A stretch of DNA of 62,262 nt, counting the filler, from Basidiobolus ranarum (taxonomy: Eukaryota): NCBI GenBank assembly GCA_040143965.1. It is 31 parts of 31 records of this genome, joined end to end, with 100 filler letters (N's around TTAATTAATTAA, not from the genome) between each part and the next. Parts side by side here need not be neighbours in the genome. Positions count along the whole stretch, not along the records: positions 18,156 to 20,070 come from JASJQH010004095.1; positions 20,171 to 22,084 come from JASJQH010004096.1; 29 more parts are not named here. One strand, given 5' to 3'. The notes below the pieces were generated by a model, which was given only the letters and a program-made list of their open reading frames with translations, made no database searches and had not been told where the DNA came from. Of this stretch, positions 707 to 32,148 are shown in pieces; positions within the stretch are counted from its first letter, which is position 1; every line of letters begins with the position of its first letter. The position numbers and the translations under genes are program-made.

Positions 707-1920
707 GTAGTAGTACTTCTGTTGAACAAGATTTTTACAGAGTGAGTTTGTAGTGATGTATATTGATTTTTTTAACTTAAGAGGAGTGTAACTAAGAAAT
801 TATTCAAAGCTTACATTTTTCACTGCCCTCTGAAGGATACTAATACTTAGTATACTTTGTTACTACTTGCCAATTCTGATGCCATACATATCTCTCATAT
901 CGAGATCAACTGATATCAAGATCAGATCCGAAATACATCACATTAATTAACTAAATAATTTTTAATTCAGATTGTCACATCAAACCGACCTAGCCTGTTA
1001 TAGTTGTAAAATGATCACTTGATTTTAATCATTATCTTGAGTTTACTAACCTCATCCATTAATCACCTTATCTATTAATCACCTCATCCAATGGGTAAAA
1101 TAGCAGCATGATTAATTAACTACACTCACAACGCTAGACGGGTATTTTAGTAACCACAATGTGTATACGTGCCTTAAACAGAAATAACCCAACAGTCTAT
1201 GTTCAAGAATTTTTGAACATGAGACACGAAGGAGCTGGTAGATGGTGTTTGCACTGATAAATTATGCAACATTGGCTTTATTGTTGTTGAAGGAGCATAT
1301 CATGTCATTCTTTATGACGGATTAAAGTAATTCGGCCCAGTATTTGATTCCATACCTAGAGTATTATTAAATAGAATATTTATTTGTGCTTTCGAATCAC
1401 TGCGATTTTAAACGAAGTAAATATGGGTTAAATGCGAGAGCATGAAGCTGAATATATGCGCATTTACTCAATAAGGAGTATTTAATTACAATTTCCAGTT
1501 CATATTATTCTAAAGACAATGTACCTGTGAGCCATTGCAATGGTATTAAATAAATCTCCATCATTTTTTAGCAGTGAAAGTCAATACTATAGTTCTGTTT
1601 TCCAATCCCCTGAAGAACTTACCTAGGGCTATCTTAACTTACGAAGGTTCTTATGACAATTATTCAGGGTACCAATGATGATTGGCTTAAAGAAAAGACT
1701 AGTCTATCTGTTACTGATTCACAAGGGGCTATTCCGAAGCTAGGGTACCATAAAGAAGATAGCATAGTTTCGGTGGTTTCCGTATAGTATGCAGTATATC
1801 AGATTACACTCCTTCCATCATCAGACGTTCTATAAATCATTTTGAATAAGGTCAAGTCTAGATACATCTATTCAAAGCCACGTTTAGGCCACGAAAAAAC
1901 TACTGAGTTTGTTTTCCAAA

Positions 1921-2020
1921 NNNNNNNNNNNNNNNNNNNNNNNNNNNNNNNNNNNNNNNNNNNNTTAATTAATTAANNNNNNNNNNNNNNNNNNNNNNNN
2001 NNNNNNNNNNNNNNNNNNNN
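1921..2020. other. Artificial contig linker (first of 30 identical 100-nt linkers, recurring about every 2.0 kb up to 60259-60358)
   Basis: 44 N + TTAATTAATTAA (stops in all six frames) + 44 N. Flanking segments shrink monotonically from 1920 to 1904 bp, i.e. length-sorted contigs were concatenated. Confidence 0.99.
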
Positions 2021-2286
2021 ACAAGGACCATTACAAAGACAGATGATGTAAGGATGATTAGGTGACCTTCCATGGAAGGTCTTGGTGGAAATACACTATG
2101 TGTGTGATGACATGATTGGTTAGGTTACATGGAATGTTCCAGAGAACATGACTTCCACATAAGTTAATCTGGACAAACTAACACAAGATTGCCGAGAAGA
2201 GATGGCACAGCAGACATGATGTCATAATCTAATAATAGAGGAGTTCTATTTGAAGTGAATCAGTATGCCAAGTTTGAATCATGACA
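2021..2286 (+). mobile_element. Partial LTR of family E (same family as the solo LTR at 45432-45960)
   Basis: Aligns by eye with 45695-45960 and ends ...GAATCATGACA versus ...GAATTGTGACA. Confidence 0.75.
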
Positions 2287-2380
2287 ACACCATCTCAGAA
2301 TCAGCTAACAATATTGATGGGCTATAACTAAAATACCACCCTTGCCTTGGAGGTGTTCTTTTTTCTTCAATATCCTTCTC

Positions 2381-3939
2381 ATGTTACAACACAGATGTTT
2401 AAAGAAGCCCTGCTATTATTGACACAAATTCTTGTGCTATGAAAGCCAGAGGCTTCATGGAAAAAATAATCACCAGCATGGTCACTGTACAAAGCCTGGT
2501 GAATATCAACAGTAATAAGTGCAAAAAATTGACTTTAGTGTTGACCACTGAGTCCACTCACTGTACTTTGCCTCAAAGTTTTGGTAATACTGCCAAAAGT
2601 CAAGATATCATGGAATTACCACCGTAAGATGACCAGAATGATGTAGGTAGAATGCAACTTTGGTCAAACCAGTAAGTCCAGGCAACTTTGAGGACTTATT
2701 CCTAGATGTTGATATTGGTTATTCCAGTACCAATGGAAGTATATCAGAAGTTGAACAAGAAGACAATGGTTTTGTTACAGACTCTTTCTTATCAGCAAAC
2801 AATAGTCCACTGATAACACTTACTAAGAAGGAAGCAGCTTTGATTATTGAGGAGTGGAGAGTTCAATCCAATCTCAGCAACCAGGTGTTTATTGATTTTC
2901 TTACACTTTTACCACAGTTGATTGGCAACTGTTGCTTGCCACAGACCTGGTCCAAGTGGAAAACACTTGTCAATTGTATGACTTATAATCCTTCAGTAAT
3001 TAAACTACCTTCATGTCCAAATGGTTGTTTGCCTTTCACCAGAGATCTGAAAACCGGAAGTCATGTACTGTTTGGACCAATTGGCAATCCCTGAATCAGG
3101 TAAATATTGTTCATATTTGGCTTATATATCTTTGATTCCCTATGTCATAGTTTTGATGAAATCACCCAAATACAGATTGTTGATTCAATACTGATGTATG
3201 CACCATAAACCTCTTGGTGTTACCAATATACTTGATGGATGTCACTGCCAGAATCTGAAAAGTCAAGGTTTCTTTGAGATCACATATGATCATGCATTTG
3301 CATTCACTCTGGATGATTCCTCACTAATCAAATATACCATTGGAAAGGCTTGCTGACCAATAATTTTAGTTAACTTAAATCTCCCTCTTTCTGAACAGTA
3401 TAAGAGTCATAATATGTTGATAATATCCATCATATTTAGACCTAAATTACCAGTGCTTATAGATAGCTTCTTGGAGCCTTTGATTGCAGAATTTGAATGG
3501 TTATTTAATGGGGTTCAGATGAGTGAATATCTTATTAAAGCTAATATCATATTTAGATCTAAATTACCAGTACTTATAGATAGATTCTTGGAGCCTTTGA
3601 TAGCCAAATTTGAACAGTTATCTAATGGGCTCAGATGGGTGAATATTTTATTAAAGCTAATATCATTGTATTTATTGGTGACACTCTGCTGTCAGTAAAC
3701 ATGGTGGTTTTTGCAGGCACAATACACTATCTTGCTGCAGATTTTGTCAAATCAATGGAGTTTACTCTAACAGGCATACATATTACTACTATCCAAATAC
3801 AACACTAAACTTCACAATTATACCATCAAGAGCCTGGTCAGATTTCAACATGATCACTGATATCAATTCCCAAATAGTCAGTCTAACATCAAACTAGGTA
3901 TTATTAGCCTTAAGCTTAAGATTATATTGCCAATGGGGA
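2381..3939 (+). mobile_element. CACTA/EnSpm (Tnp2/Transposase_21-type) transposase pseudogene
   Basis: Broken frames give CPNGCLxF, PIILVNLNLP..EQYK..NML, IDSFLEPLIAEFE, GD, GHN...CRFC, typical of Tnp2 transposases. Contains a 117-bp in-frame tandem duplication (3431 and 3548). Confidence 0.75.
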
Positions 3940-7523: not shown

Positions 7524-7974
7524 AGACTTGTTCCATTTTATTGAGCCAGATCAGGCCAGCTAAAGAGTGTGCCAGCACAAGTTTGCATGATTGGGCACTA
7601 TCCGGCACAATGTTATTTACCGTTTTGGAAACAGTTTATTATACTTATGTGGTATATTTAAGAAAAGTACTTTTAGAAGATATTGCACATTCAAAAGATG
7701 ATGAAAACTTTATTCATAGTGTCTTAAGTATAGAGCTCTCAATGGATATCTTTGAGTATGGATGTATTGAAAATTAATCAAGCTTTTAACTACTTTGCCT
7801 AACTTTGGTTAAGGCCCACAAAATGATTTTCCTCTATACTTTCCTGCTACAATGCTATATCTCTATAGGAAACCAAAGTTATGCTCTACTCTTGCTCTAA
7901 AATGGGAAAAAATGTCATTATAAAGCTTTTGCCTCTCTGTGAGTATCCCTCCTCTGGGCCTCTTGTTGGCAGTG
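7524..7974 (-). mobile_element. 3' end of the Harbinger/IS5-like element, with native transposase C-terminus and probable terminus
   Basis: 7790-7974 is nearly identical to 4265-4449. The frame continues KVVKSLINFQYIHTQRYPLRALYLRHYE* (stop 7710-7712). Similarity ends at AGACTTGTTCCATTTT (7524). Confidence 0.75.
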
Positions 7975-9342
7975 NNNNNNNNNNNNNNNNNNNNNNNNNN
8001 NNNNNNNNNNNNNNNNNNTTAATTAATTAANNNNNNNNNNNNNNNNNNNNNNNNNNNNNNNNNNNNNNNNNNNNTGAACCTTTTCAGATTCTGTGGAGAT
8101 TTGATGCATCTAGCATCTATATGTATCTTGATGCTTAAGATGATGTCCTCTAATTCCGTTTCAGGTGAGTCTAACCGTCCTTTTGGGAATATCTATTTAT
8201 AGTGCGAATTTATAGCGAATTTATGACCTACGCTTGCTTTGTTATTGATAAAAAATCTCGACATTTCTGAAAAATGCTCAACTAACGTGCTCCAGTTTTG
8301 ACTTCCAAAATATCATAATTTTGTAATTCGCCTCTAATGGCTGTTACAATACCAATCTTCAGGTTTCAGTTCGAACGTAAAGCCATGCTCTTTTTGTAAG
8401 CTTGAGGGTTGTGTGTCAACATCTTAATTGTAATACGGAATATTACAGCATCACAAGAAAATATACTCATTCATAAGACATCTCTTAATGTATAAATACA
8501 CATAACTTCCCTGCACAGTATACAGAAGTTAGCTGTTTCTCCATAACATATAATTTCTGATTGTACATCAAATACCCAATTTCAACAACATGGTGCTCAC
8601 TGTTTGTCAGATTGAAGAGTTTGTTAGACATATGGCTAGGTAAAAATGAAACGTATATCAAAGTTACCCTGGAGTATAGAGAAATTAAAAGCATTTTCTC
8701 ACATGCAAAAGATGGCCATACTTTCAATGTTCTGTTTTTGCTATAAAAGGGAAGCACTAAATGCCAACAACACTATCAAGTAGACTAGTGAAAATATTAC
8801 ATTCTATGTCATCATAAAAATTAGTTGATGGCAATTACACTAGGGCTCATGATTGATTCACTTTCTCAGCATGTATTTTTCAAATAATAATATCTCTGCA
8901 TTCACCTGACATATAAACTTAGTATTTACCCTATTACCTAAGCAGAGTCCAAAAAGCAGCCCTTGATGCCATAATAGTGATTCTATTACTGTTGGTGATA
9001 GTATCCACATTTTGGTCTCTCTTCTTAAGTATAAGTATATGTTATATACTTATTTTCTTGCAAGAAAGTTATACCTCACATAGCTAAAAACATGTAGCGC
9101 AGCTTGCCTTGATGTTTTCTGACCCTCATCCACCCCCTTCTATAATATGTATGGTATCTCTTTAATATATAAAAATAACCCCTGTATCAAGTGAATTTTA
9201 CAATATATTTTATACCTTTAAGCTTTTAAAAACTATAGCCAAATCACCATGGTCACCTTACCATATTATCCTTAGATAATAACTTAACATTCAATTCTTT
9301 TCACAGCTTTACTTTCATGAGAGCTGATCTTAGATTCACTAC

Positions 9343-9821
9343 TGTTGGAGGATCTTGACATAATGGGGGTAGACTTTGAGTATTAGAAGCAACTTATGAT
9401 AGTGTGCTTTAGTTAGTTTATTCTCAAGAGTAAATGGTGACTTATATAGTAGAAAAGTAAATCAATTGTTTGAGATATTCAGGAGTTTGTGTAACAAGAT
9501 ATAATAAATAAGTGGGGGTAATAAGACATACTTGTTATATAGATATAAAGATATTCCTATTGAGAATATAGGGGCTATAGATTTGTTGCTTTCTGTTTCT
9601 GATATATGTATCATAATTAAAGTTAACTATGATGTTGAATAAAGATTAATTATCCAACAATGTCCCTTAATTCTTATTCAGCATTGTGCTTATATTCACT
9701 AATGCCTATTCCTGCTCTTAACTTCTCAAAGCTTGAAGTTTTGAGTGGTTTTGTTAGTATATCTGCAAGCATGTTTTCAGTATTACAATAAATAAAGTTC
9801 ACTTCTTTGTCTTGAGCTTTC
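9343..9821 (-). mobile_element. Ty1/copia family C: RNase H end, polypurine tract and 3' LTR (9343-9659)
   Basis: Minus strand reads YCNTENMLADILTKPL, followed by an LTR bounded by TGTTGG...CCAACA. The same LTR is at 31483-31799 and 52339-52433. Confidence 0.8.
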
Positions 9822-9991
9822 CCCTAACAGAAATTTGAGGATTGTTATTGTAGGAAAACCGTCACAATTTTAATCCATTTTGGATTGACCGTTTACTTAC
9901 CGTCATAAAATCGTCAAGTTAGATTTGATTTTAATCAATTTTTCAGTTTCAGGAGTGAAATTTCAAGATCTCGCAAAATAGTTGCGAATGA
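9822..9991 (+). mobile_element. Terminus of a DNA transposon (CCCTAACAGAAATTTGAGG...) inserted into copia RNase H
   Basis: The same sharp end occurs at 28361 (-), 29559 (+) and 30383 (-), each with a different flank. Confidence 0.75.
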
Positions 9992-10091
9992 NNNNNNNNN
10001 NNNNNNNNNNNNNNNNNNNNNNNNNNNNNNNNNNNTTAATTAATTAANNNNNNNNNNNNNNNNNNNNNNNNNNNNNNNNNNNNNNNNNNNN

Positions 10092-12008
10092 GAGCAGCAT
10101 ATTGCTGTAGCTCCAGTACAGCATTCTGAAGGTCTTGTATCATTGTTGAGTGACTTTCTTACTGTAGACTAGTTGCTCCAGAATGCTGCATTAATTGAAA
10201 TATTGTGGCTCATTGCTTGTCATGGCCTGAATAGCAACTTCATAGTTTTTACTTATGATTTCATACTAGTCATTGTGGTGTTCTGCCTGTGATTCCCTTG
10301 TTGTAATCATTCTTTCTAAATTTTGACAGAGGGTTGCTCAATAGTTGGCAATGCAACCATTTTGATAGTTGATTGTCTTGAGAGTGTTTCTGTTGCACTT
10401 TGCTCAGCTATTGATTTACTATGTAATTGGGTAATTACAGTCTCTTCACCTGCACTATTGCTGAAAAGGAACACATCTGTTAAATTGATCAATGGTTCAT
10501 CTTTACCTGCATGAGTCTTTGGCATTTTAATGCTTTCTAAAGTGGATAGTGTATCACCAGACTGCTCATCATTTAATTCCTCTGTTCCTACTAGTTTTTT
10601 CCTATTGTGCCATCAGGCTTTTGCTTGGAAGCTAATTTTAAGTTAGATTCTGAATAGTTTTGAATGGCTTTGCAATTTTCACATGGTAAACTTGGTGTAA
10701 TCAATTGCTTAGAAACAGCTTGAAATGAACCAAAATTGCCATCCATTACAGGAAATATCTTGTAAATCCTTGTATGACTCATCTGTGGAAGCATCTTAGA
10801 AACAGCTGATGCTATTAATGGGCAATATCAAAGATACCACCCTTACATTGGTGGTGTTCTTTTTTCTTGAATATCCTTCTCATGCCACAACATAAATTTC
10901 TAAAGAAGCCCTGCTATTATTGTCACCTATTGTTGTGCTATGAAAGCCAGAGGCTTCATAGAAAAATTGATCACAAGCATGGACACTATACAAACATCCT
11001 AGCTGCACAAAGCTAGGTGAGTATCAACAGTAACAAGTGCACAAAATTGACTTTAGTTTTGCCTACAGAATCCACTGGCTGTGCATTGCCTCAAAGTTCT
11101 GGTGGCACTACCAATAGTCAAGATACTGTTGAGTTACCACAGTTTATGACCAGGATGATGTATGTAGAAATGCAACCTTGGTCAAACCACTAAGTCCTGA
11201 CAACTTTGAGGACATGTTTCTACATGTTGACCTTGGTTATTCCAGTACTTATGGTAGTAAAGCAGAAGTTGAGGAAGAAGATGGTGGTCTTTTTATAGAC
11301 TCTTTGTTATTGGGAAGCATTAGTCTACTTATAGTACCTATAGTAAAGGAAGCGGCTTTGCTTATTGAAGAGTGGAGAGTTCAATTCAATCATTGCAACT
11401 AGGTGTTTATTGGTTTTCTTACACTTTTAACACAGTTGATTGGCAACTGTTGCTTGCCACAGAGCTGGTACAAGTAGAAAACACTTGTGAAATGTATGTC
11501 TTATAATCCTTCATTAATTGAAGTACTTTCATATCTATTTGTTGTTTGCTTTCAATATTAATTGGGAGACCTGAATCCATGAATTGTTTGCACACAATTG
11601 GCAATTACTGAGCCAGGTAAATATTACTCAAACTGATGATTTCTCATCTTGAAGTTTTGATAAAATCACTCAAATACAGGTTATTGCTCCATTACCAAAG
11701 TACTCACCATAATGCTGGTGGTATTATCAATATTCCTGATGTACCTGACCACCAGAATCTGAAAAGTCTTACTTACTGGTTTTTTTCCTGTTGTGCCTTC
11801 TGGCTTTTTCTTGGAAGCTAATTTTGATTTAGATTTTGAATAGTTTTTGAATGTCATTGAGATATTCCTTATAATCCTTGAGTAACTAAACTACCTTCAT
11901 GTCCAAATGGTTGTTTGGCTTACATCAGTGATCTGAAAAACCCAAAGTCATGTACTGTTTGCACACAATTGGTAATCAATGAATCAGGTAAATATTGTTC
12001 ATACTTGG
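10092..12008. mobile_element. CACTA-type element relic: ORF2 (-) and divergent transposase 5' part (+)
   Basis: Degenerate copies of 54345-55337 and 2381-3120. Confidence 0.75.
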
Positions 12009-12160
12009 NNNNNNNNNNNNNNNNNNNNNNNNNNNNNNNNNNNNNNNNNNNNTTAATTAATTAANNNNNNNNNNNNNNNNNNNNNNNNNNNNNNNNNNNN
12101 NNNNNNNNAATGTCCAGCTCTCTGTTCAATAATATGCTGGCCCCTGACAAAAGAATATAC

Positions 12161-12941
12161 TGATAAAAGTGTTTAGGTGATTTGGAAATGTTTTTGACAA
12201 GCTATGGAGTTGTAATTTAAGCACTTAAGTTTTATTGAATTGATTATATCCTATTTGTAGTTTACTATGAACTACAACTATTGGATGTGCTTAGATCATA
12301 ACAAACATGCCTGCTAGCCATGGTTGAAAATTTGAGGTGATTTTGAGACATTTTGTGAAAATAGTAAAAATTGGTAAAAGTGATCTAATTGATATTTATA
12401 CCAATTAGAGCAATAAACACACATTTTTCAATGATAGAATTGAGTGCTAAGTTATCAGAATAGGAATAAACTAACTACTAAATAATGAGTTGCTATTTTC
12501 TTAATTTCAATATCTATTGGGTTCAGTGTCCTTTAAGAATGATCAGATAAATAGACATTCCTTTAACAGCTAGCTCAGGGCTCATAACCTGATAAAAGTA
12601 TTTATGGGATATGGAAGTGTTTTGGACAAGATTTGGATTTGTGATTTAAGCACTTATGTTTTATTGAATTGAATATGTCCTGTTTATAGTTTACTATGAA
12701 ATGGGACTATTGGAGGTGCTTAGATTGTAACAAACATGCCTGCTAATCATGGTTGAAAATTTGAGATGATTTTGAGACATTTTGAGAAAATAGTAAAAAT
12801 TGGTAAAAGTGATCTAATTAATATTTCTATCAATTGGAGCAGTAAGCACACATTTTTCAATGATAGAATTGAGTGCTAAATAATCCAATAAGCAATTAAC
12901 TAACTACTAAATATTGAGTTGCTATTTATCTAATTTCAACA
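12161..12941 (-). mobile_element. Two copia family B LTRs (12161-12512, 12590-12941), the second followed by a primer-binding site (12578-12589)
   Basis: About 350-bp direct repeats; the intact copy reads TGTTGAAATTAG...TTTTATCA on the minus strand. PBS GGTTATGAGCCC is complementary to the tRNA-iMet anticodon arm. Confidence 0.85.
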
Positions 12942-12959
12942 ATTTCCAGAGTCAGATAT

Positions 12960-13730
12960 ACTGGCAAAAAAGCTTAATTTCACCATGGAACCAGGTACAT
13001 CAGTTTGAAGAGTGCCAAATTTGGAATTTTATCCAATACCTGGCACCTCTCAAAAATAGCTAAAGTGCTTGAGAAGTTTTTCAAATGTACAGAGGTAAAA
13101 ATTGAGTGCAAGTATGCAGAAAGTGGCTTCAGAAGAGGAACATATGACTTGATGTTCAGCCTGGTGTTGTCTGTGCAGATATTGGGGAAGAACTTAATAC
13201 AGAGTGTACAATATTGCAGGGTATCTGCCAGATAAATGGAAGAATGTTGATTGAGCAACATTAATCCAATGGTGGGCTTTGATGGGGATATTGATACAAA
13301 CTTTTGTTGGATATGTGTTAAACCTTGTGTATGAAGAACTCTATAAAAATATTAAGGAGAATATATCAAAGAAACTATGGATTTCAAAGGTGACAATTTA
13401 GCATACAAGTGGTAAATGTGTAAAATTTGAGTTACACTTTTTTCACATGCCCTAACAAAAAACTTTAGATTTGCATTTCATACTATTTTCTTACTGTTTT
13501 ATGATGGTATTATGCTGGTATTGCCAGAATTTTCTAACGGTTTCTCTACCAGTCTTTTTTTCCTCCCATTTTCTTATGGTATCCTACCCCTATATTAATG
13601 TTTTCTCTGGTTTTCCTCCGGTATTCATTCCAATATTTTTCATAAGGCTGTGTTGATTGATTGTTGCCTTGGATTGCAGCCAATCAAGTGCAACTATTTT
13701 GCAAGTTGTTGAAACTTAACTCCTGAAACT
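12960..13730 (+). mobile_element. Subterminal region of the CCCTAACAG-ended element (reverse of 29559-30136)
   Basis: Reverse-complement similarity to 22185-22720 and 29690-30136. Confidence 0.65.
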
Positions 13731-13843: not shown

Positions 13844-14024
13844 TGTTGAAATTAGCATTGCCTAAACACCTACATAGTCATATATAGCTTAGTACTTAGT
13901 TATCTTATAATTAACTAAGATATTATCAATTATTCTCAATTGGAATTTACTTAGAATATTTTTACCAACTTAGAAGTTCTCAGATATATAGATTTTTCAA
14001 ACTTGTGCTAGAAGCCCCAAACTT
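13844..14024 (+). mobile_element. Copia family A LTR, partial
   Basis: Begins TGTTGAAATTAGCATTGCC after purine-rich GGGGAG; matches 44824 onward. Confidence 0.8.
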
Positions 14025-14124
14025 NNNNNNNNNNNNNNNNNNNNNNNNNNNNNNNNNNNNNNNNNNNNTTAATTAATTAANNNNNNNNNNNNNNNNNNNN
14101 NNNNNNNNNNNNNNNNNNNNNNNN

Positions 14125-16040
14125 TATGAGAAATATTTAATGCAATTAATGTAGAGCTTGCCATATCTATTATAGTCCTGTTGGCTCTTTGAGCAGCTTT
14201 GTTCTGTTGAGGTGAATAGGGAGTAGTAGTTTCTTGCTTAAATACATAAACTTTGCAACAGTGATTAAATAGTGTTAAAATATATTTCAACCATTATCAG
14301 TGCTTATTTTCATGATTTTAGTGCCAGTTTCAGTCCCCACAAGTGTTCTAAAATTTCTAAACATAGAGAGAGCTTCTTCTTTTCTACCCATAAAGTAGCC
14401 GCAAGTGTATCTTGTATAATCATCAATATATGTGATTAAATATCATTTCAACCTAAAGATGAATTTTGCTTAGGTCTACTTAAGTCTGAATGAATTAGAT
14501 CCAAATTTTTGACAGATTTGATTAAACCCAAGCTCTTGAACAGTTCCCTGGCTTGTTTTCCATACATACAACCATCACAAATTTTCATCATGGTTGAGGG
14601 TTAATTTGAAATCCTGAAATTTGGCAATTTTTGTTCATTTTGATCAAATAATCATATTCAATATGACCAAATCTCATATGCCATAATTGAATAGGTTCTT
14701 GATTGGAATCACTTAGATTTACACATAAAACTCTTGGATTATCTGTAAGTTGGTATTAGTTTTGATCCTTTTCTCTGAAAGCTACATAATTCCTATTTTG
14801 ATCAGTCATGATGCATCCTGACTTATCCATATTGAATTTTGGCCTTTCTGGGGTGGCCTTGCATATAGATAGTAAATTCTTGGAAATATCTGGAACATGT
14901 AGTACATCCTCAAAAGCATATACTTTCTCTTTGGAAGTTCCAGTTAAATTGACTTGAATTGTTGCTATTTCAATAGCATGCAATATGTGGTCATCTCCCA
15001 TGAGAACCTGTCTTATTGGGATTTCTTCATAATCCACAAACCAGTGTTTTTCATTTGTGAAATGCTGGGAGGCTCTAGAATTAAAATAATATATCTAAAA
15101 ATCCTTGTTGGTAGTCATAAATAGGCAGATATAAACAGGTATTCTTCTGTTGTAGCTACATTTCCAGATTCAGTACATTTTTCTTTGTTTGCTATTCTTT
15201 CAAAGCAATCTTTGCTTAAATGGCCAGCTCTTTTACAGTAATCATAGAATGTGTTGCTTTTTTTCTTAAGATATTTTTGATCTTTATTGGATGGTTTCCT
15301 GATTTGCACAAATCTTCATCCAGAAGTCTGCCAAATAGAAAATTTAAGGTCAAATTTTCAGTTCTTAATTCTAGAGTCATTACTAGGCTCTGAAACTTGT
15401 GTGGCAAGCTATTCAGGAATGTAACCATGATATCTTGATCAGTAGTAGGTGCTCCAATGCATACCATTACATCCACTAAGATAGTAACTCTATTAATTAG
15501 TGATTTAATGTTTTCTCCTGGCTTCATCTTTAAGTTAAAGAATTATATTCTCAGATACATCTTGTTGCCAGCACAATATGTTTGGTAAGTTTCTTCCAAA
15601 GCTTTCCATACCTTCTGGGCAGTTCTAGCTCTGAAATATTGAATTAGCAATTTGTCTGTGATATCAGGACAATTGTGTTAAAGGCACTTTGTTCTTTTTT
15701 AACTTGGTGTAAAACTTTGGTTTCAGATAGTATGCATTTTTTCCTTCTCCTGCAATGGTGTCCCAAAGTGTTTTATCTTGCAGCAGCATTTTCATTTTAA
15801 TTTTCCAAACTTGATAATTGATTTCATCCAACTTTTTAGAAGAGGAAAAACTTCCATAGATTTGAGAAATAGACATTACACAGAATGCAAGTTTAGGGCT
15901 CATTACCTGCTAAAGTATTTGGGAGCCAGTTGACAGTGGATTGTAGACTTAGGGGAATTGGTGGTTTTCACTTATTGATTTATTGAGTGGAAAGTTGAAA
16001 TTTATAGTTTTGTCAAGATGCAAACAAACTAATGTGTAGA
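14125..16040 (-). mobile_element. Ty1/copia family A: 5' LTR, PBS, gag, protease, integrase start (pseudogenised)
   Basis: Gag NYQVWKIKMKMLL, a degenerate zinc knuckle (YCKRAGHLSKDC), DVLHVPDISKNLLS, integrase TPYSPQQN. Degenerate PBS at 15896-15907. Confidence 0.9.
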
Positions 16041-16140
16041 NNNNNNNNNNNNNNNNNNNNNNNNNNNNNNNNNNNNNNNNNNNNTTAATTAATTAANNNN
16101 NNNNNNNNNNNNNNNNNNNNNNNNNNNNNNNNNNNNNNNN

Positions 16141-16990
16141 CAAAGGTAGCTCATTTTACTCCCACAGATGTTCTGAACACAAACCCAGTGTTAGTTTTCT
16201 GTATTTCCACCAAAAAGTAAAAATGCTTTATTTCTGTACAATAAAAAATCATCTCACAAAGCTATTCACAACTCCACTTTTCTAAAGTTCCTCCAAACAG
16301 CCCAAAATTTCCCAATATAACTTTTACCCAATAAATCAACAAGTGAAAACCACCAATTGCTCTAATATTCAAGCCACTTCCAACAGGCTCCTGACTACTT
16401 TAACAGGTTATGAGCCCCATTGTAGTGGGGTAGCATTGCTACCCACTGGCAGGTTGCCTTATTTCCACTACAAGCTCATATCATTACTATTACACAATTT
16501 CTATTTGATTATCCATATTGGACTTACCCATATTTTCTAGCCAATCATATCACACCATTAGTATTATCCCCTATTATTTAATATTATTCAGTACTAACTC
16601 GCATTCGCCCTATTATTTTCTGGAAAATTTTACAATCTCCAGGAATATTCAACAAGATTATTGGAATATTTGACACTTGATTGAGTTTTAACCAATCAAA
16701 GCTTGGTTTTGCTGGAACATTCCATTACTTAGTCAAATATCACTTAACTGCATATTTGAATAATGTTAGAGTTAGCAATTCCATACTGAAAGTTTCAAAC
16801 TTGTCCAAATTGCCCCAGAGATAGCTCATTTTACTCCCACAGATGTTCTGAACACAACTCCAGTGTTAGTTTTATGTATTTCTACCAAAAGGTATAAATG
16901 CTTTATTTCTGGATAATATATAATTATCTTACAAAGCTATTCACAACTCCACTTCTCTAAAGTTCCTCCAAGCAGCCAATTTTTTCCCAT
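16141..16990 (+). mobile_element. Copia A-type LTR and PBS (16406-16417) with a gypsy LTR inserted at 16421, followed by another A-type LTR fragment
   Basis: ...TTTAACA GGTTATGAGCCC CAT TGTAGTGGGGTAGC...; the last part matches the gypsy LTR at 56350-56682. Confidence 0.75.
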
Positions 16991-18055
16991 AAGATTCAAG
17001 TAAATTAAAATATTGGCCAGCAAGCCTTTCCAACAGTATATTAGTTTAGTGAGAAACCATCCTGAGCCAATGCAAAGCGTGACCATTTGTGTTCTCAAAG
17101 AAACATTGACTTTTCAGATTCTGGAAGTGACATCCATCAAGTCTATTGGTGTTACCATAAGCTCTACAGTGAGTGCTTTGGTACCAGATCCATGATCTAT
17201 ATTTAGGTGATTTCATTGGAACTTTAAGATAGGGAATCAATGGTATGTATGCCAAATAAGAACAATATTTACCTAATTCAGTGATTGCAAATTGTGTGCA
17301 AACTGTACCTGACTTCAGCTTTTTCAGATCACCTGTGAAAGCCAAACAACCATTTGAACATGAAGGAAGTATAAATACTGAAGGATTATAAGTCATACAG
17401 TTGACAAGTGTTTTCCACTGGTACCAGGTATGTTCCAAGCAACAATTGCCAATCAACCATGGTAAAAGTGTGCAAAAATCAATAAACACCTGGTTGCTAA
17501 GATTGGATTGAACTCTTGGCTCCTCAATAATCAATGTTGTTCCCTTGACAGTAAGTATTATGTGTGGACTAATGATTGCCAATAACAAAGAGTCCATAAC
17601 AAAACCATTGTCTACTTCTTCAACTTCTGATATACTATTATTGGTACCGGAATTACCAAGGCCAACATCTAGCTGCAAGTTGTCAAAGTTGTCTCAACTT
17701 ACTGGTTTGACCAAAGTAGCCTTTCTACCTACAACATTCTGGTCATATAACTGGGGTAACTACACAGTATCTTGACTTTTTGCAGTGTTACCAAAACTTT
17801 GAGGCAAAGTTCAGTCAGTGAACTCAGTGGGCAAAACTAAATTTGATTTTGTGCAATTATTACTGTGGATATTCACTAGCCATTATGCAGATGGTAGCTT
17901 GGTACCATTACTGTGCTTGTGATTACTTTTCTATGAAGCCTCTGGCTTTCATAGCTCCAGAATTTGTGACAACAATACCAGGGCTTCTTTAAACATTTGT
18001 GCTGTGGCATGAGAAGGATGTTATAGAAAACAAAACTCCTCCTATGTATGGGTGG
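16991..18055 (-). mobile_element. CACTA-type transposase relic
   Basis: ORF 17046-17678 has CSNGCLAF, YLAYIPLIPYL and DGCHFQNL; homologous to 2381-3400. Confidence 0.8.
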
Positions 18056-18536
18056 NNNNNNNNNNNNNNNNNNNNNNNNNNNNNNNNNNNNNNNNNNNNT
18101 TAATTAATTAANNNNNNNNNNNNNNNNNNNNNNNNNNNNNNNNNNNNNNNNNNNNGAAATCATTACTAAACTTGATATATATCAGACCTTATGCTTTATT
18201 ACCCAAAACATTAACCAAAGATGTGAATCAACAATTGAAGAGTGGCTTAGATCCTCTCAAAATTAGCTGATACTATGAACGGGATAGTTTGGTACGGTTG
18301 ATTGTCGTTAATTTCAAAAATACCACTAGTTTAAAGAATCCCCTCTTCCTACCCCAACTGATTAGTATTGGATTGGCACGTGCATATTCATATTTTGTAT
18401 TTAGAGGATATAACACTAAAAGTACTTTCAAAAAAATACAAACGAAATTTACTCACTTTTCTGTATTCACCTAAAGTCAGGTAAACCTTTCTTTTCTTTT
18501 ATTTTGCGTGCAACTTTATTAAAGTGGCATAACAAG

Positions 18537-19770
18537 ATGCGTCAAACCAAAGTATTTGCTGGTTCTTCACATCCTGAGTTATCCAAACTTATTGTAGAGA
18601 AATTAGGCATCAAAGAAGCTCCAGTCACTTTAAAGAAGTTCTCCAACAAAGAAACGTGCATTGAAATAGGTGCTTCAGTACGAGATGAAGACGTATACAT
18701 AATTCAAAGTGGCTGTGGTACTGTTAACGACAATATTATGGAGTTGTTAATTCTCATTAACGCGTGTAAATTCGCGAGCGCTAAAAGAGTGACTGCTGTA
18801 TTACCATACTTTCCGTATTCCAAGCAGTCTAAGAAAAAATCCCGAGGGGCAATCGCTGCTAAATGTATTCCTCGTTTATATATGTATATATATATATATC
18901 ATTCGAACGTTAATTCATTCGAGTCCATTCTATTGTCTAGTACTTGCCAACATGTTGATTGTAGCTGGAGTTGACCACATTATCACTATGGATCTTCACG
19001 CCTCGCAAATGCAGGGGTTCTTCAACAGACCTGTGGATAACCTGTATTCAGAACCAAATGTCGCCAAGTGGATCATTGAAATGGAGCCAGATTATAGGAA
19101 TGGAGTAGTCGTTTCCAAAAATGCCGGTGGTGCAAAAAGGTTGACTTGAGGCGGTATTCTGTTGATTTGATTTCCTTTCTAACGTATTCTGTTGATAGAG
19201 TCACTTCTCTTGCTGACAGACTGAACATTGACTTTGCATTGATTCATTCGGATCCTAAGGTTCGCTTCCATCATTCTGGAAATAGCAAGCAAGTTGTTGA
19301 TGATGATGGCACCCAATACATTTCCAACAGAATGGTCTCACAAGAAGAGGAAGGAATTACGTTAGTTGGTGATGTCGAAGGGAAAATCGCGTTTCTATTG
19401 GTAAGCGAAAGTAATAAAACCCACATTAATATTTGTCTTCGATATTCATTTCCGGTGTATCCAGGATGACATGATCGATGGCTCCAAGACATTCATTAAG
19501 GCAGCGGAGCATTTGTACAAAAGATGTAGAGCGATTCGTGTCTATGTTGTGGCAACTCACGGTCTACTATCTGGTGATTCGTTGAGAGAGCTAGAGGAAT
19601 GTTCCAGTATTTACCAAATAGTAGTCACGAATACCATCGCCATACCTGAATCTAAACGCGTAAATCTTACCAAGCTGCGGATCATCGATATCTCGGGAAC
19701 ATTAGCGGAAGCGATTCGAAGAACACACAATGGAGAATCCATTTCTTATCTTTTTAATACAGCTTTGTAA
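18537..19770 (+). CDS. PRS1: Ribose-phosphate pyrophosphokinase, fungal Prs1 type. Exons 18537-18864, 18941-19139, 19199-19400, 19465-19770
   Basis: Three GT-AG introns (76, 59, 64 nt) join the ORF pieces to give [63 protein letters not shown] and YSKQ..K.RGAI are Prs1-like signatures. Confidence 0.93.
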
Positions 19771-20303
19771 GCAAAGGTCGTTTCACGAATACATGTTTGA
19801 TATTGAGTACTTAAACTATTTGTATAAATAATCTTACATGCTGAACTACAAGTAAATAAAATCATCCTTGTTCAATCCATCCACTCCCAAATCCACAATT
19901 AGCCCATCTTTAGACCTTTGTGGGGGAAAGTTCCAATCACAAATAGCTCGAATATGAGATTGAGTTTTAATGTCCTTTATTTTGAAAAAGAGATTGAGCG
20001 TGAGTATGTTAGATCATGAACTCGAATCAAATTCAAAGAAATGCCAATTTAATGTATCGTTAATGTATCGNNNNNNNNNNNNNNNNNNNNNNNNNNNNNN
20101 NNNNNNNNNNNNNNTTAATTAATTAANNNNNNNNNNNNNNNNNNNNNNNNNNNNNNNNNNNNNNNNNNNNTCCAGACTTGATTATATCTTTTTTCTAATC
20201 TTGATTATCCTTTTAAAATACCCCAACTTGATTATATCTATCCCAAACCTCCCCCCCCCACTCTATCCTTGAAATTATACCCTAATCATCTCACATCCCC
20301 AAT

Positions 20304-20984
20304 TTAAGGATACCATACAATCGGCAACACCCCCATCTCGTATACTAACATCTCATTCGCCCTTATAAATATATTACTCCCCTCCAACCCTTTCCCCGAC
20401 ACATTCTTCCCCCCCACATGAAATACTTTTATTAAATACTTCGACCCAACGCAATCCGAAAAATTTACCGCATCCTTCCCCATTAATATCGTTACCATCT
20501 TCCCACCCCTCCGTGAATATATATATCCCAACAACTTCCTCGTAAACTCTTCCCATAATACTCTATGGTTCGCCAAAAACTTATCACAGTTAACCCCCAC
20601 CGTAAATGCAACACTTATCAAAAATACCCCCTGTGATATCCACTGCTTACACATCTCTCTCGGTTCCGGCTCTTCCACCCCATACTCCCTCCCTACCTCT
20701 TTCGCAATTAATACCGTGTCTAATGGACTCTTTATGCACCCCACCGACGGCATTAACGCCACCCCCGACGCAAACGCTACTCTCGTTATACTGCACTCCT
20801 TATCATCTGGCGCATCGCTTAATATTACCACTTTTATCTCGTCCGGCCCCATCAGTCTCAACATCCTAAATACGTCCCTCTTCTTCGGTAATACTTCCAA
20901 ATTTGACTCCTTTAACGTCTTTGCTATCCTTGCCAATATATCCCGATTCTTCTCGAAAAACTCTTCCCATCCCTTAATCATCAT
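20304..20984 (-). CDS. Uracil-DNA glycosylase family-1 fold protein with degenerate active site, probably viral
   Basis: Scaffold motifs retained (P..DVF, IKVVIL, AF, W.SQGVFL, NH..LWEEFT, GSNIF..AN..L, PIVW), but GQDPY is SDAPD, LLLN is FLIS and HPSPLS is HVGGKN. No introns. Confidence 0.8.
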   Translation of the reverse strand: MMIKGWEEFFEKNRDILARIAKTLKESNLEVLPKKRDVFRMLRLMGPDEIKVVILSDAPDDKECSITRVAFASGVALMPSVGCIKSPLDTVLIAKEVGREYGVEEPEPREMCKQWISQGVFLISVAFTVGVNCDKFLANHRVLWEEFTRKLLGYIYSRRGGKMVTILMGKDAVNFSDCVGSKYLIKVFHVGGKNVSGKGLEGSNIFIRANEMLVYEMGVLPIVWYP

Positions 20985-21348
20985 GAACTTAACTCCTACG
21001 CCAATTCCCCCTCAAACTTCACCCAAAAAAGATCTCTCTGTTGAAGATACCTATACAAAACTTTACGTCCAACAACTTATAGATAACAATCAAACCGATG
21101 TCCTCGTCCAACTCGGTATTATCTCCAACTCCGAAACAAACAAACCTCTCCCCTATATATTAAATTCTATCAAAAAGTTTTTTGACACTAATAAACCCGA
21201 ACAACCCACCCCTGACCAAAATAACGCCACCTGCAAATATTGCGGCCATAACAACGTCCTCGTCCGAGAATATCAACTCCGCTCAGCCGACGAAGGAAGT
21301 AATTTAGTCCATGAATGTATGAACTGCCATAAAAGTTGGACCGTATAA
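20983..21348 (+). CDS. TFIIS / RNA polymerase subunit M (Rpa12/Rpc11/Rpo30-like) C-terminal zinc-ribbon protein, 121 aa, probably viral
   Basis: CKYC-x(9)-QLRSADEG-x(6)-CMNC-HKSW. The likely start is the ATG at 20983; the upstream part of the 210-aa ORF is antisense to the UDG gene. Confidence 0.85.
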   Translation: MNLTPTPIPPQTSPKKDLSVEDTYTKLYVQQLIDNNQTDVLVQLGIISNSETNKPLPYILNSIKKFFDTNKPEQPTPDQNNATCKYCGHNNVLVREYQLRSADEGSNLVHECMNCHKSWTV

Positions 21349-21423
21349 ATTATCGAATCTTTTCCCCTTTTTAAAAATTCAACCTTAATACTACACTTCT
21401 GCACCAATTCCTATTTCTTCACA

Positions 21424-22084
21424 ATGTCGGGATTTGTAGCCGAAAGTTCTGTCTCCTACGACCTATATAGTCTATGGATGGACAAAGTCGAACTTTTGAC
21501 CCAAGTCTATTATGACGCCGTCTCCGATGTTGTTGGTTCTATCCTTCCCGATTCCAAGAAATGTTTTGTCTATGAAGATGAAGACTGGATCGTTCTCTTC
21601 TTCCCCTTAATCCCCCATAACGGCTTCGTAATGGCTAACCTCTTACAACGTTTCGAACATGACGATGAAACTTTTATCCACAAAATTATTCTTGAAGACC
21701 TCTTAGATGAATACGGTGATCTTCTCCCAGTCGCAGTACTCCCTGACGAAAACTTATCCACTTTCTTATCTGAATATCTCAACGTTTCCGTATACCAAGA
21801 TTTCTGTCTTGATGACGTTACCTTGGAAGATCTCTTTCACCTTCATATCATCCCTCCTCCCACTACCGATTTCCCTCTCCAAAAAATCCCATTGTACCCC
21901 ATCCTGGAACAACAAAATGTCGACCGGTACATATTAGGTTACGTTATGTTCTTAGATGTTCTCCCCGATTCTCACCCACAAATTAACACGCTTAAAGGTA
22001 TGATTAAACATCTAGTCGCCAAATCTGGTCACCTTGAACCTATTTATGAACAAGATGGTATCCGGTCTATCGACTGCACCAGAT
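21424..22084 (+). CDS. Acidic hypothetical protein, 3'-truncated by the contig end, probably viral
   Basis: Uninterrupted 220-codon ORF starting 75 bp after the TFIIS-like stop. About 37 D/E versus 12 K/R by hand count. No recognised motif. Confidence 0.75.
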
Positions 22085-30236: not shown

Positions 30237-31450
30237 CTTGAAATTTCACTCCTGAAACTGAAAAAATTGATTAAAATCAAATCTAACTTGATGATTTTAT
30301 GATGGTAAGTAAACAGTCAATCCCAAATGGATTAAAATTTTGATGGTTTTCCTACAAGAACAATCCTCAAATTTCTGTTAGGGATATTGCAGTTGGTGAA
30401 TCTTGAGAATATCCTAAATCTGTTAAGTATTTTCTTAACCACATTGCTTCTTTGGTTGCATCTTGGGTAGCCATGTATACTGCTTCTGTTTTTGAAAGTG
30501 ATATGGTAAGTTTTTTCTTGAAATTCCAAGAAATAGCTCCATTATAGCAAAGAAATAAGTATCCTGTTGTAGATCTCTTGTCTTCAATCTGTCTTCCCCA
30601 ATTTGAATCTGAATATCCCATCAGATCAAAGTTTGATCCTGAAAATGTGTACAGATCTGCAGTACCCTTGACATATCTGATAATCTACTTAACTGCTATG
30701 ATTTGATTGGATCCATAATTTGGAAGATATTGGCACATAACTCCCACAGAATATGCAATATCTGTCTATGTTCTAGCCATGATATATATATCAAACTACC
30801 AATCATGTATCAATAAGGAAATTTCTGGTTTTCATTTCAATTCAAGAATATCTGATTTGAGCTTTTTATGGTGAAGCTAAGATTTGTCTGCATTGGGGTA
30901 GATACTGGATTATATTCTTCCATTTTAAACATCTTCAGTATATATAGGATAAACTTTGATTGGTTTAAAGTTATTGTTTTGGTAGTTCTATCTTTCTCAA
31001 CTTGGATTCCAAGATAGGATATCAGTTCACTAAGAGCAATCATTTTGAATTTGGCAGATAAGCTGGATTTGGTTTTCTCCAAAGTTTTCAAATTATTAGT
31101 TGCTATAATAATGTAATCTACATACAAGGCTAATAAAACTGGGCTTGTCTTCACTGTCCTGAATTGGATACTATAGTCAGCATTACTCTTTTGGAATTTG
31201 AGTGTTTTCAACAATGCATCTAGCTTGCTATTGCAAGCTCTTGGAAATTGTTTTAAGCCATAGAGTGGTTTCCTGAGTCTGCAAGCTTTTTTAGGGTTTT
31301 CTGGGTCCGCAAATCTATATGGCTAGTCCATATAGCTCTGCTCAGCAATCTTACCATTCAAAAAAGCAGTTTTAACACCCATTTGTTGTATAATAAACCA
31401 TTATTAAGCTGAAATTGCCAAAATCAATCTTATTATATTTAACTTTGCTA
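30237..31450 (-). mobile_element. Copia RT/RNase H relic interrupted at 30383 by the DNA-transposon terminus
   Basis: LALYVDY, GYSDSNWG..EDKRSTTGY. Confidence 0.85.
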
Positions 31451-31482
31451 GAGATCCCAAACTTTGCACACATATTACTAGG

Positions 31483-32148
31483 TGTTGGATAATTGATCTT
31501 TATTCAACATTATAGTTAACTTTAATTATGATACATATATCAGAAACAGAAAGTGATATATCTAAAGCCCTCTATTTTCTAAATTGGAATATCTCTATAT
31601 CTATATAACAATTATGTCTTATTACCCACACTTATCTATTATATCTAATTACACAAGCTCTTGACCATCTCAAACAATTGACTTACTTTCTACTATATAA
31701 GTCACCATTTATTCTTAAGAATAAAGTAACTAAAGCACACTATCTTAAGTTGCCTCCAATACACAATGTATACCCCCATTATGTCAAGATCCTCAAACAT
31801 GGTAGCAGCAAGTGAATTAGAGGTTTTTTCCCAAAAGGCAATTACTCATATTCCAACATTCAAATATGTCTGGGAAGTAGTTCAACCATATGAAGAAGAA
31901 AAAACTTCTCCAGAAGAAAGTACAGATTCTGACACTGAAACAAAGAAGCCAACATGTAAAGAAGCTGAAGCAGCCTTCAAAGAAAAAGACAGATTGGCAT
32001 TTAGGGAAATATGTTTAAGACTGGGATCACAACAACTTAAGTTAGTCAAAGATACTGACTCTGCCAAGAAAGCATGGGAAATCCTAGTGGAACATGATGA
32101 GCAAAAAGGGCTTGCTTTCTTGATGATGCTACAAAGAAAATTCTTAAA
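31483..32148 (+). mobile_element. Copia family C: 5' LTR (31483-31799), PBS TGGTAGCAGC (31800-31809) and gag start
   Basis: TG...CA LTR identical in family to 9343-9659. Gag KDRLAFREICL..SAKKAWEIL. Confidence 0.85.

Follow-up and report, generated by a model that had tools for sequence, protein, structure and literature searches.

The window analysed here is a 62,262-nucleotide stretch (filler included) of the genome assembly of the fungus Basidiobolus ranarum (GCA_040143965.1), made up of 31 contigs of ~1.9 kb each that are ordered by size and separated by N/TTAATTAATTAA spacers. Positions 20171–22084 correspond to exactly one contig of 1914 bp, and this contig very probably represents a genome fragment of a large DNA virus of the Nucleocytoviricota type (nucleocytoplasmic large DNA virus, NCLDV), either endogenised in B. 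ranarum or carried with it. It encodes a protein with a uracil-DNA glycosylase (UDG) fold, a minimal TFIIS-type factor and the putative start of a D5-type primase-helicase. The nearest relatives of all three proteins were found, in the same gene order, on contigs carrying Nucleocytoviricota core genes, which supports the large-DNA-virus origin put forward in an earlier reading of the DNA made without database searches (the sequence-only reading).

Three genes in a conserved order

The three tightly packed open reading frames (ORFs) of the contig account for 1706 of its 1914 nt (89%), in agreement with the coding share of about 90% given in the sequence-only reading. The UDG-fold protein P0001 (226 aa), assigned by phmmer against PDB, HMMER searches, a tree and a motif table, is encoded on the minus strand (20304–20984). 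Its gene is placed head-to-head with that of P0003, a minimal TFIIS-type factor of 121 aa (20983–21348, plus strand), and the start codons of the two genes overlap (CATG at 20982–20985). A 75-nt intergenic spacer (21349–21423; G 3%) precedes the D5-like gene (21424–22084, plus strand), whose product P0002, assigned through its homologues as the N-terminus of a D5-type primase-helicase, comprises at least 220 aa and runs off the contig end. As stop codons need G or A, chance ORFs arise somewhat more easily on the G-poor plus strand. The stop probability per codon, estimated from the base frequencies of the contig, was ~0.043 on the plus and ~0.077 on the minus strand, corresponding to probabilities of ~6e-5 for 220 open codons and ~1e-8 for 226 open codons, respectively. 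ORF length thus exceeds chance even on the G-poor strand and, given their homologues, all three ORFs can be regarded as real genes.

The UDG fold proposed for P0001 was confirmed by phmmer against PDB, which matched residues 15–224 with the Coxiella UNG (1.1e-10) and also returned the E. coli (4.5e-10) and mimivirus (1.5e-8) enzymes. The Pfam UDG score of 15.3 bits was under the cut-off of 24.3, and a word-indexed homology search with the UDG alone gave no hits among 68 candidates. HMMER over 1.84e9 representatives yielded 1606 UDG hits at E ≤ 1e-3, the nearest of them at 1.1e-35 (37% identity) and 3.1e-35 (39%), followed by a tail to ~1e-20, with ordinary UNGs at ~1e-10. Profile A1, which separates 19 UDGs of this subfamily (196–266 bits) from named bacterial UNGs (≤155 bits), was used to scan IMG/VR and gave 65 loci; JGI metagenomes were scanned with a tighter alignment (A3), and the best 80 of 436 confirmed matches were taken. 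The other two window proteins were then compared by tblastn with all 146 loci.

The TFIIS protein hit only L001/L066 (the same contig), L002, L067, L068, L071 and L072, in each case at most ~1.6 kb from the UDG gene, and in L074 a TFIIS ribbon gene was detected beside the UDG gene by Pfam. A TFIIS homologue therefore adjoins the UDG gene in six of the seven loci with genomic context that belong to the UDG clade described below (it was undetected in L070), and L071 likewise has one. In L066, L068, L071 and L074 the two genes diverge from overlapping 5' ends, as in the window, and for all three genes L068 matches the window contig in both order and orientation. The fragment would accordingly belong to a conserved three-gene replication/transcription block, consisting of a leftward UDG gene, a head-to-head TFIIS gene and a D5-type primase-helicase gene, in a viral lineage with a split RPB1 that is otherwise known only from metagenome and IMG/VR contigs.

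Pfam analysis of the larger ORFs of L066, L002, L067 and L068 revealed a family-B DNA polymerase (PolB) of the PF00136/PF03104 type (6e-83), an SNF2/ResIII helicase and DUF5757, together with a sub-threshold match to capping enzyme/methyltransferase. RPB1 is split in these relatives into an N protein of 629–673 aa where complete (that of L067 is cut by the locus edge) and a C protein of 317–353 aa. The Atlas clusters nearest to the L066 PolB belong to Nucleocytoviricota, both in the top three by features and in the top six by structure. An NCLDV-type PolB and a multisubunit RNA polymerase are thus found on the syntenic loci L066, L002, L067 and L068, not on the 1914-bp contig; the NCLDV core genes of the contig itself are the TFIIS ribbon and the start of the D5-type helicase-primase. 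No match to capsid or A32 was obtained among the relatives' ORFs scanned with Pfam, and no search was made beyond those ORFs.

The TFIIS-like protein matched Pfam PF01096 over residues 83–120 (6.5e-12) as well as LEF5_C (3.1e-6), and its best PDB match was RPA12 (1.7e-5). Its only cysteines are C84, C87, C112 and C115, residues 1–83 being Cys-free, so that, as had been read from the sequence, the protein is without the N-terminal zinc ribbon of RPA12, RPB9 and RPC11. The acidic loop R100-S-A-D-E-G105 is invariant in a three-sequence alignment, and RS[AST]DEG was found in all seven homologues; those adjoining the UDG gene on L066/L002, L067, L068, L071, L072 and L074 measure 92–111 aa. P0003 therefore shares with cellular TFIIS, with RPA12/RPB9/RPC11 and with baculovirus LEF-5 the C-terminal CxxC...CxxC ribbon and an acidic loop of the RSADEG type, but the group to which it belongs differs from these TFIIS-family factors in lacking both the N-terminal ribbon and TFIIS domains I/II, and in its length of only 92–121 aa. 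Judging from the zinc ribbon, the DE loop and the chemistry of the family, such a minimal TFIIS would reactivate backtracked viral RNA polymerase through stimulated transcript cleavage.

The third ORF and D5-type primase-helicases

The third ORF had been taken for an orphan in the sequence-only reading, a view that has to be given up, as its homologues are proteins with D5_N and DUF5906 domains and it appears to be the N-terminal third of a D5-type primase-helicase. It is 100% identical to the deposited B. ranarum protein K7432_017639 at NCBI. This deposited model (P0005; 21424–21936) stops at ...NVDRYD after 170 aa while the open frame continues to the contig end, and it seems to carry an invented splice or a truncation. 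The UDG and TFIIS genes did not surface as deposited proteins in the homology searches run. A second deposited protein, K7432_018576 (P0006), is partial and located on a 1070-bp contig of the same assembly. It repeats the last 28 aa of P0002 and runs past it into the start of D5_N, as placed by a hidden Markov model (HMM) of four full-length homologues. Judged from the proteins, the viral region thus extends over two or more contigs, since P0006 overlaps the end of P0002.

The full-length homologues are 669, 653, 686 and 641 aa long and carry D5_N and, after it, DUF5906, which is the NTPase domain in helicases of the D5 type. D5_N was over the Pfam cut-off in two of the four (1.5e-9 and 7.4e-6) and weaker in the other two, and DUF5906 matched with values of 7.5e-7 to 7.9e-5. 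P0002 and P0006 together are collinear with these 641–686-aa proteins: the HMM matched P0002 at positions 11–121 (1.8e-13, Z = 1) and P0006 at positions 159–252 (3.3e-21). In tblastn, P0002 found L074 (4.7e-9) and L068 (1.7e-4), and P0006 found L067 (1.2e-11), L074 (2e-10) and L068 (7.5e-6); the L066 contig (G001) carries no homologue of the third ORF. Neither P0002 nor P0006 alone gave a Pfam hit (for P0002 none at E ≤ 1), and a PDB sequence search returned nothing at E ≤ 10 for either of them. Pattern scans of IMG/VR with both proteins found nothing, and an Atlas search with the third ORF gave a top score of 0.89 and no family.

A single-sequence AlphaFold model of the third ORF was useless (predicted local distance difference test, pLDDT, 33.5), and a model of its N-domain from a five-sequence alignment was of low confidence (pLDDT 54; predicted template modelling score, pTM, 0.49). 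Foldseek found no match to this N-domain model at E ≤ 0.001. An exhaustive VIA search with the same low-confidence model placed the PrimPol domain of African swine fever virus (ASFV) first (Z 6.9, root-mean-square deviation 3.3, 115 aligned), and its top 22 rows included eight archaeo-eukaryotic primases (AEP), among them vaccinia D5 (Z 5.0) and the AEP domain of mpox E5 (Z 4.6), both in the top 17; every Z was < 8, below the level that the tool counts as meaningful. Because all Z values lie below that level and no conserved acidic catalytic motif of the DxD type was visible in the N-domain alignment, an AEP-like N-domain is a lead, not a result. The order of D5_N followed by the DUF5906 NTPase is that of the poxvirus D5/E5 and ASFV primase-helicases, from which the homologues of the third ORF differ in being shorter and in the lack of a visible DxD-type motif. 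By analogy with its family, a D5-type primase-helicase consisting of an AEP-like N-domain, D5_N and a superfamily 3 (SF3) NTPase would unwind, and perhaps prime, viral DNA.

A UDG clade with altered catalytic motifs

The position of the window UDG was examined in a quick IQ-TREE analysis (LG+C20+F+G4, SH-aLRT support only) of 132 rows, comprising the window UDG, 101 of the 146 loci, 22 further relatives and eight named bacterial UNGs. Loci with a high-scoring segment pair of E ≥ 1e-9 or with fewer than 170 query residues (including L071) had been dropped, and L001 was left out as a duplicate of L066. The window UDG was placed in a clade of 29 rows (SH-aLRT 99) together with L066, L002, L067, L068, L074, L070 and L072, while all eight named bacterial UNGs and every other IMG/VR UDG in the tree were located outside it. 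In this tree without eukaryotic UNG the window UDG thus branches with none of the bacterial enzymes. A profile of the clade matched PDB entries of bacterial UNG at 2e-33, human UNG at 1e-28, and poxvirus D4/E4 at 1e-6 to 3e-9.

At the catalytic Asp position (GQDPYH), which holds Asp in eight of eight bacterial UNGs, the 28 clade-mates carry Ser (23), Glu (4) or Asp (1), leaving a viral UDG clade mostly devoid of the canonical catalytic residue. With Ser in place of this Asp, standard glycosylase function is improbable across the clade, and its members are more likely weak glycosylases or DNA-binding replication accessories than standard repair enzymes. The window UDG has gone further. It carries Ala58 at the catalytic position (LSDAPD; relatives GQSPYP), and the Asn of the uracil pocket, which is kept in 28/28 clade-mates and 8/8 bacterial UNGs, is replaced by Ser124 (FLIS for FLLN). 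His189 is retained, but the loop that contains it reads HVGGK, as compared with mostly HPVAR, HPVSR or HPAAR in the clade and HPSPL in bacteria. At columns conserved to at least 80% in the clade the window UDG deviates in 12 of 40, the next worst member in 6 of 38, and the median is 6%. The additional loss of the pocket Asn and of the HP loop motif makes glycosylase activity improbable in the Basidiobolus copy.

In relation to known systems, the window UDG keeps the UNG fold over its full length and the His of the HPSPLS motif of family-1 UNGs, from which it differs in the catalytic Asp (Ala), the pocket Asn (Ser) and the HVGGK loop. Like poxvirus D4/E4, it would be a viral UDG encoded beside replication genes, and the poxvirus D4 UDG doubles as a polymerase processivity subunit. 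However, D4/E4 is much farther from the window's UDG clade than the bacterial, mimivirus and human UNGs (2e-33 to 1e-28), and the HPVAR loop, considered as a D4-like mark, was rejected in view of the low scores of D4/E4 with the clade profile.

Composition and origin of the element

In composition the contig is unlike the others of the window, and the statements of the sequence-only reading on this point, including the abundance of CpG, were borne out. Its CpG observed/expected ratio (CpG o/e) of 1.21 is the highest of the 31 contigs (rest 0.02–0.93), and its GC skew of −0.46 lies outside the range of the other 30 (−0.20 to +0.12). The claimed absence of transposable element (TE) relics was also upheld, as the Pfam scan detected no TE domain in any of the three ORFs. 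Ten long ORFs were tested on other contigs, of which four encode TE proteins (a DDE transposase, a copia-type reverse transcriptase and two integrases), three encode cellular proteins (phosphoribosyl pyrophosphate synthetase, an amino-acid transporter and a multicopper oxidase) and three gave no Pfam family. The L066 and L002 proteins, UDG aside, had no match on the other window contigs, which resemble the tail of a fragmented eukaryotic assembly. CpG o/e is only 0.02–0.11 in 15 of these 30 contigs (e.g. 2021–3939, 10092–12008, 14125–16040 and 30237–32148), and such extreme CpG loss, with transposon ORFs on some contigs, suggests heavy methylation-driven repeat decay in B. ranarum.

The skew reflects a depletion of G on one strand. 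Base contents of the plus strand are A.284, C.304, G.112 and T.300, with A and T in balance. At third codon positions the plus-strand genes have 4–7% G and 36–37% C, the minus-strand gene has 5% C and 49% G, and the non-coding stretches contain 3–4% G. The skew is therefore independent of the direction of transcription, the plus strand being G-poor as a whole. Its magnitude is not quite unique, since 0.445 was the largest absolute skew among 1598 segments of the same length (1914 bp) taken from the 146 loci; what is unusual is its disregard of gene direction. In a rough parsimony comparison with the clade consensus, the three genes together showed ~19 G>T, ~16 G>C and ~12 G>A changes on the plus strand, which suggests that transversions account for most of its loss of G, although the counts are weak because the comparison is saturated at ~30% identity. 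The depletion would point to a mutational history with strong strand asymmetry, of which a long single-stranded phase during asymmetric replication is a speculative cause.

Endogenous NCLDV sequences have been reported from 15 fungal genomes (Gong, Zhang & Han 2020, PMC7017919). According to the main text of that paper, the 'fundsalphavirus' lineage, placed near Pithovirus, was found in 14 species including Basidiobolus meristosporus and B. heterosporus, with PolB, D5, a D6/D11 SNF2 helicase, an S-adenosylmethionine methyltransferase, RPB2, RPB5 and a split RPB1 as shared genes (PMC7017919). The host genus is that of the window contig, and PolB, D5, a D6/D11-type SNF2 helicase, a methyltransferase and a split RPB1 recur on the environmental relatives of the contig; its lineage is probably of the same kind as the insertions in the other Basidiobolus species. 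The term 'undescribed' in the sequence-only reading is therefore correct in part. Endogenous NCLDV elements with this gene set were already known in Basidiobolus and the B. ranarum contig joins them, but the main text of PMC7017919 makes no mention of B. ranarum, 'uracil' and 'TFIIS' each occur 0 times in it, and strand skew is not mentioned in its Results section. The new details are the UDG clade mostly without the catalytic Asp, the additional decay of UDG in the Basidiobolus copy and the one-strand depletion of G. The contig adds B. ranarum to the hosts, and the conserved three-gene block links a fungal footprint to a set of environmental contigs.

Several observations weigh against a viral origin. 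No capsid, A32, PolB or RNA polymerase gene is present on the 1914-bp contig, so that the assignment rests on relatives of 29–39% identity and on synteny, and these environmental relatives could themselves be insertions in eukaryotic DNA. Eukaryotic UNG is absent from the UDG tree, and it is by profile score against PDB entries that human UNG is no nearer to the clade than bacterial UNG. The depletion of G was found in no relative (whole-locus skew −0.06 to +0.11 in nine loci, ~0 in L001 and L002), the window UDG deviates more than any other member of its clade, which suits a decaying relic better than a functional viral gene, and the likeness to the fundsalphaviruses is one of gene content in the relatives, not of compared sequence. 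An origin from a cellular contaminant or from host genes (a microsporidian, protist or bacterial UNG, an RPA12-like subunit and a helicase) would agree with the best solved-structure matches, which are canonical bacterial UNGs and RPA12. We consider it very improbable nonetheless, as virus-type contigs with conserved synteny hold far closer relatives next to PolB, split RPB1 and D5, the TFIIS protein is devoid of the N-terminal ribbon of the cellular subunits, and the composition differs from that of the other 30 contigs. Hardly more credit can be given to an element outside the NCLDV, e.g. a cytoplasmic linear plasmid like the killer plasmids of yeast, even though the contig is small, compact, intronless and strongly strand-asymmetric and its relative L066 is flagged with inverted terminal repeats (145-nt arms). 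The PolB of the relatives is of the PF00136/PF03104 type, the protein-primed-type domain PF03175 not being reported for it, 57 nt of the L066 arm are also internal, so that it may be a dispersed repeat, and CheckV rates L066 as 5% complete. To our knowledge, D5, UDG and TFIIS are not plasmid genes.

If the contig is viral, as we prefer, the element may be either a relic or still active. There is about an even chance that it is an endogenous viral element of the B. ranarum nuclear genome, non-replicating and slowly decaying. This would be in line with the NCLDV insertions published for two congeners (PMC7017919), with the origin of the contig from a fungal genome assembly, and with a UDG that has lost three conserved motifs and deviates at conserved columns twice as often as any clade-mate. 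However, the three ORFs are all intact, TFIIS retains its four Cys and the RSADEG loop, and CpG o/e is not reduced as in half of the other contigs, so the element has not shared the CpG decay of the host repeats; moreover, a skew that ignores gene direction would be an unlikely product of nuclear replication. The same features speak for a virus or episome that still replicates in the sequenced culture or alongside it, or whose integration is very recent, a possibility which we rate as substantial but rather doubtful. The intact, tightly packed ORFs and undepleted CpG would be expected of it, strand-wide depletion of G suggests a history of autonomous, asymmetric replication, and the D5 gene continues on a second contig. 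On the other hand, the motifs of the UDG have degenerated, the contig showed no hallmark structural gene, and the two viral contigs have the very small size of the tail pieces in a fragmented assembly.

In its most specific form, a relative of giant viruses would replicate free or as an episome in B. ranarum, with asymmetric replication stripping one strand of G and with a UDG turned structural. The conjunction of these claims is unlikely, but it stays under consideration given the intact ORFs, the undepleted CpG and a skew that is blind to gene direction and absent from the relatives. G>T and G>C changes would then account for most of the lost G, a pattern to be expected where exposed single-stranded DNA is damaged. 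The host would in that case be a terrestrial, non-zoosporic fungus, and we know of no DNA virus isolated so far from a terrestrial filamentous fungus. The evidence for DNA viruses in such fungi has so far consisted of genomic footprints, as described in the main text of PMC7017919. The combination of intact ORFs, normal CpG and one-strand depletion of G offers a cheap handle on whether the element is still alive.

Several minor features were observed on the contig and its relatives. The non-coding flank downstream of the UDG gene (20171–20303; G only 4%) contains a 14-nt word in two exact copies (20176–20189 and 20226–20239) with a looser third copy between them, and Rfam gave nothing at E ≤ 1 anywhere in the contig. 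L066 (1–17169), a 17-kb IMG/VR record that may be a genome segment or an assembly effect, carries PolB, the SNF2 helicase, the N part of RPB1, UDG and TFIIS. The arms of its terminal inverted repeats, as flagged by IMG/VR, show 95% complementarity, and related repeats are dispersed in intergenic positions (3241–3468, 7973–9153 and 12919–13326). The repeats were considered as a sign of a small linear replicon, but this was weakened by the internal recurrence of arm nucleotides 38–94 at 12919–12975; because part of the arm is also internal, the repeat is not read as a true terminus. On L067 (92.7 kb; 1267–3675 and 16150–19650), inteins interrupt both the SNF2-type helicase (Hint and LAGLIDADG homing endonuclease) and PolB (intein splicing domain). 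Finally, L066 and L002 contain very large ORFs (9523–12939, 1138 aa, and 13967–17740, 1257 aa, respectively), in which Pfam recognised only a D-mannose-binding lectin domain, scoring at its cut-off or slightly under it, and which may encode a surface or structural protein of this virus group.

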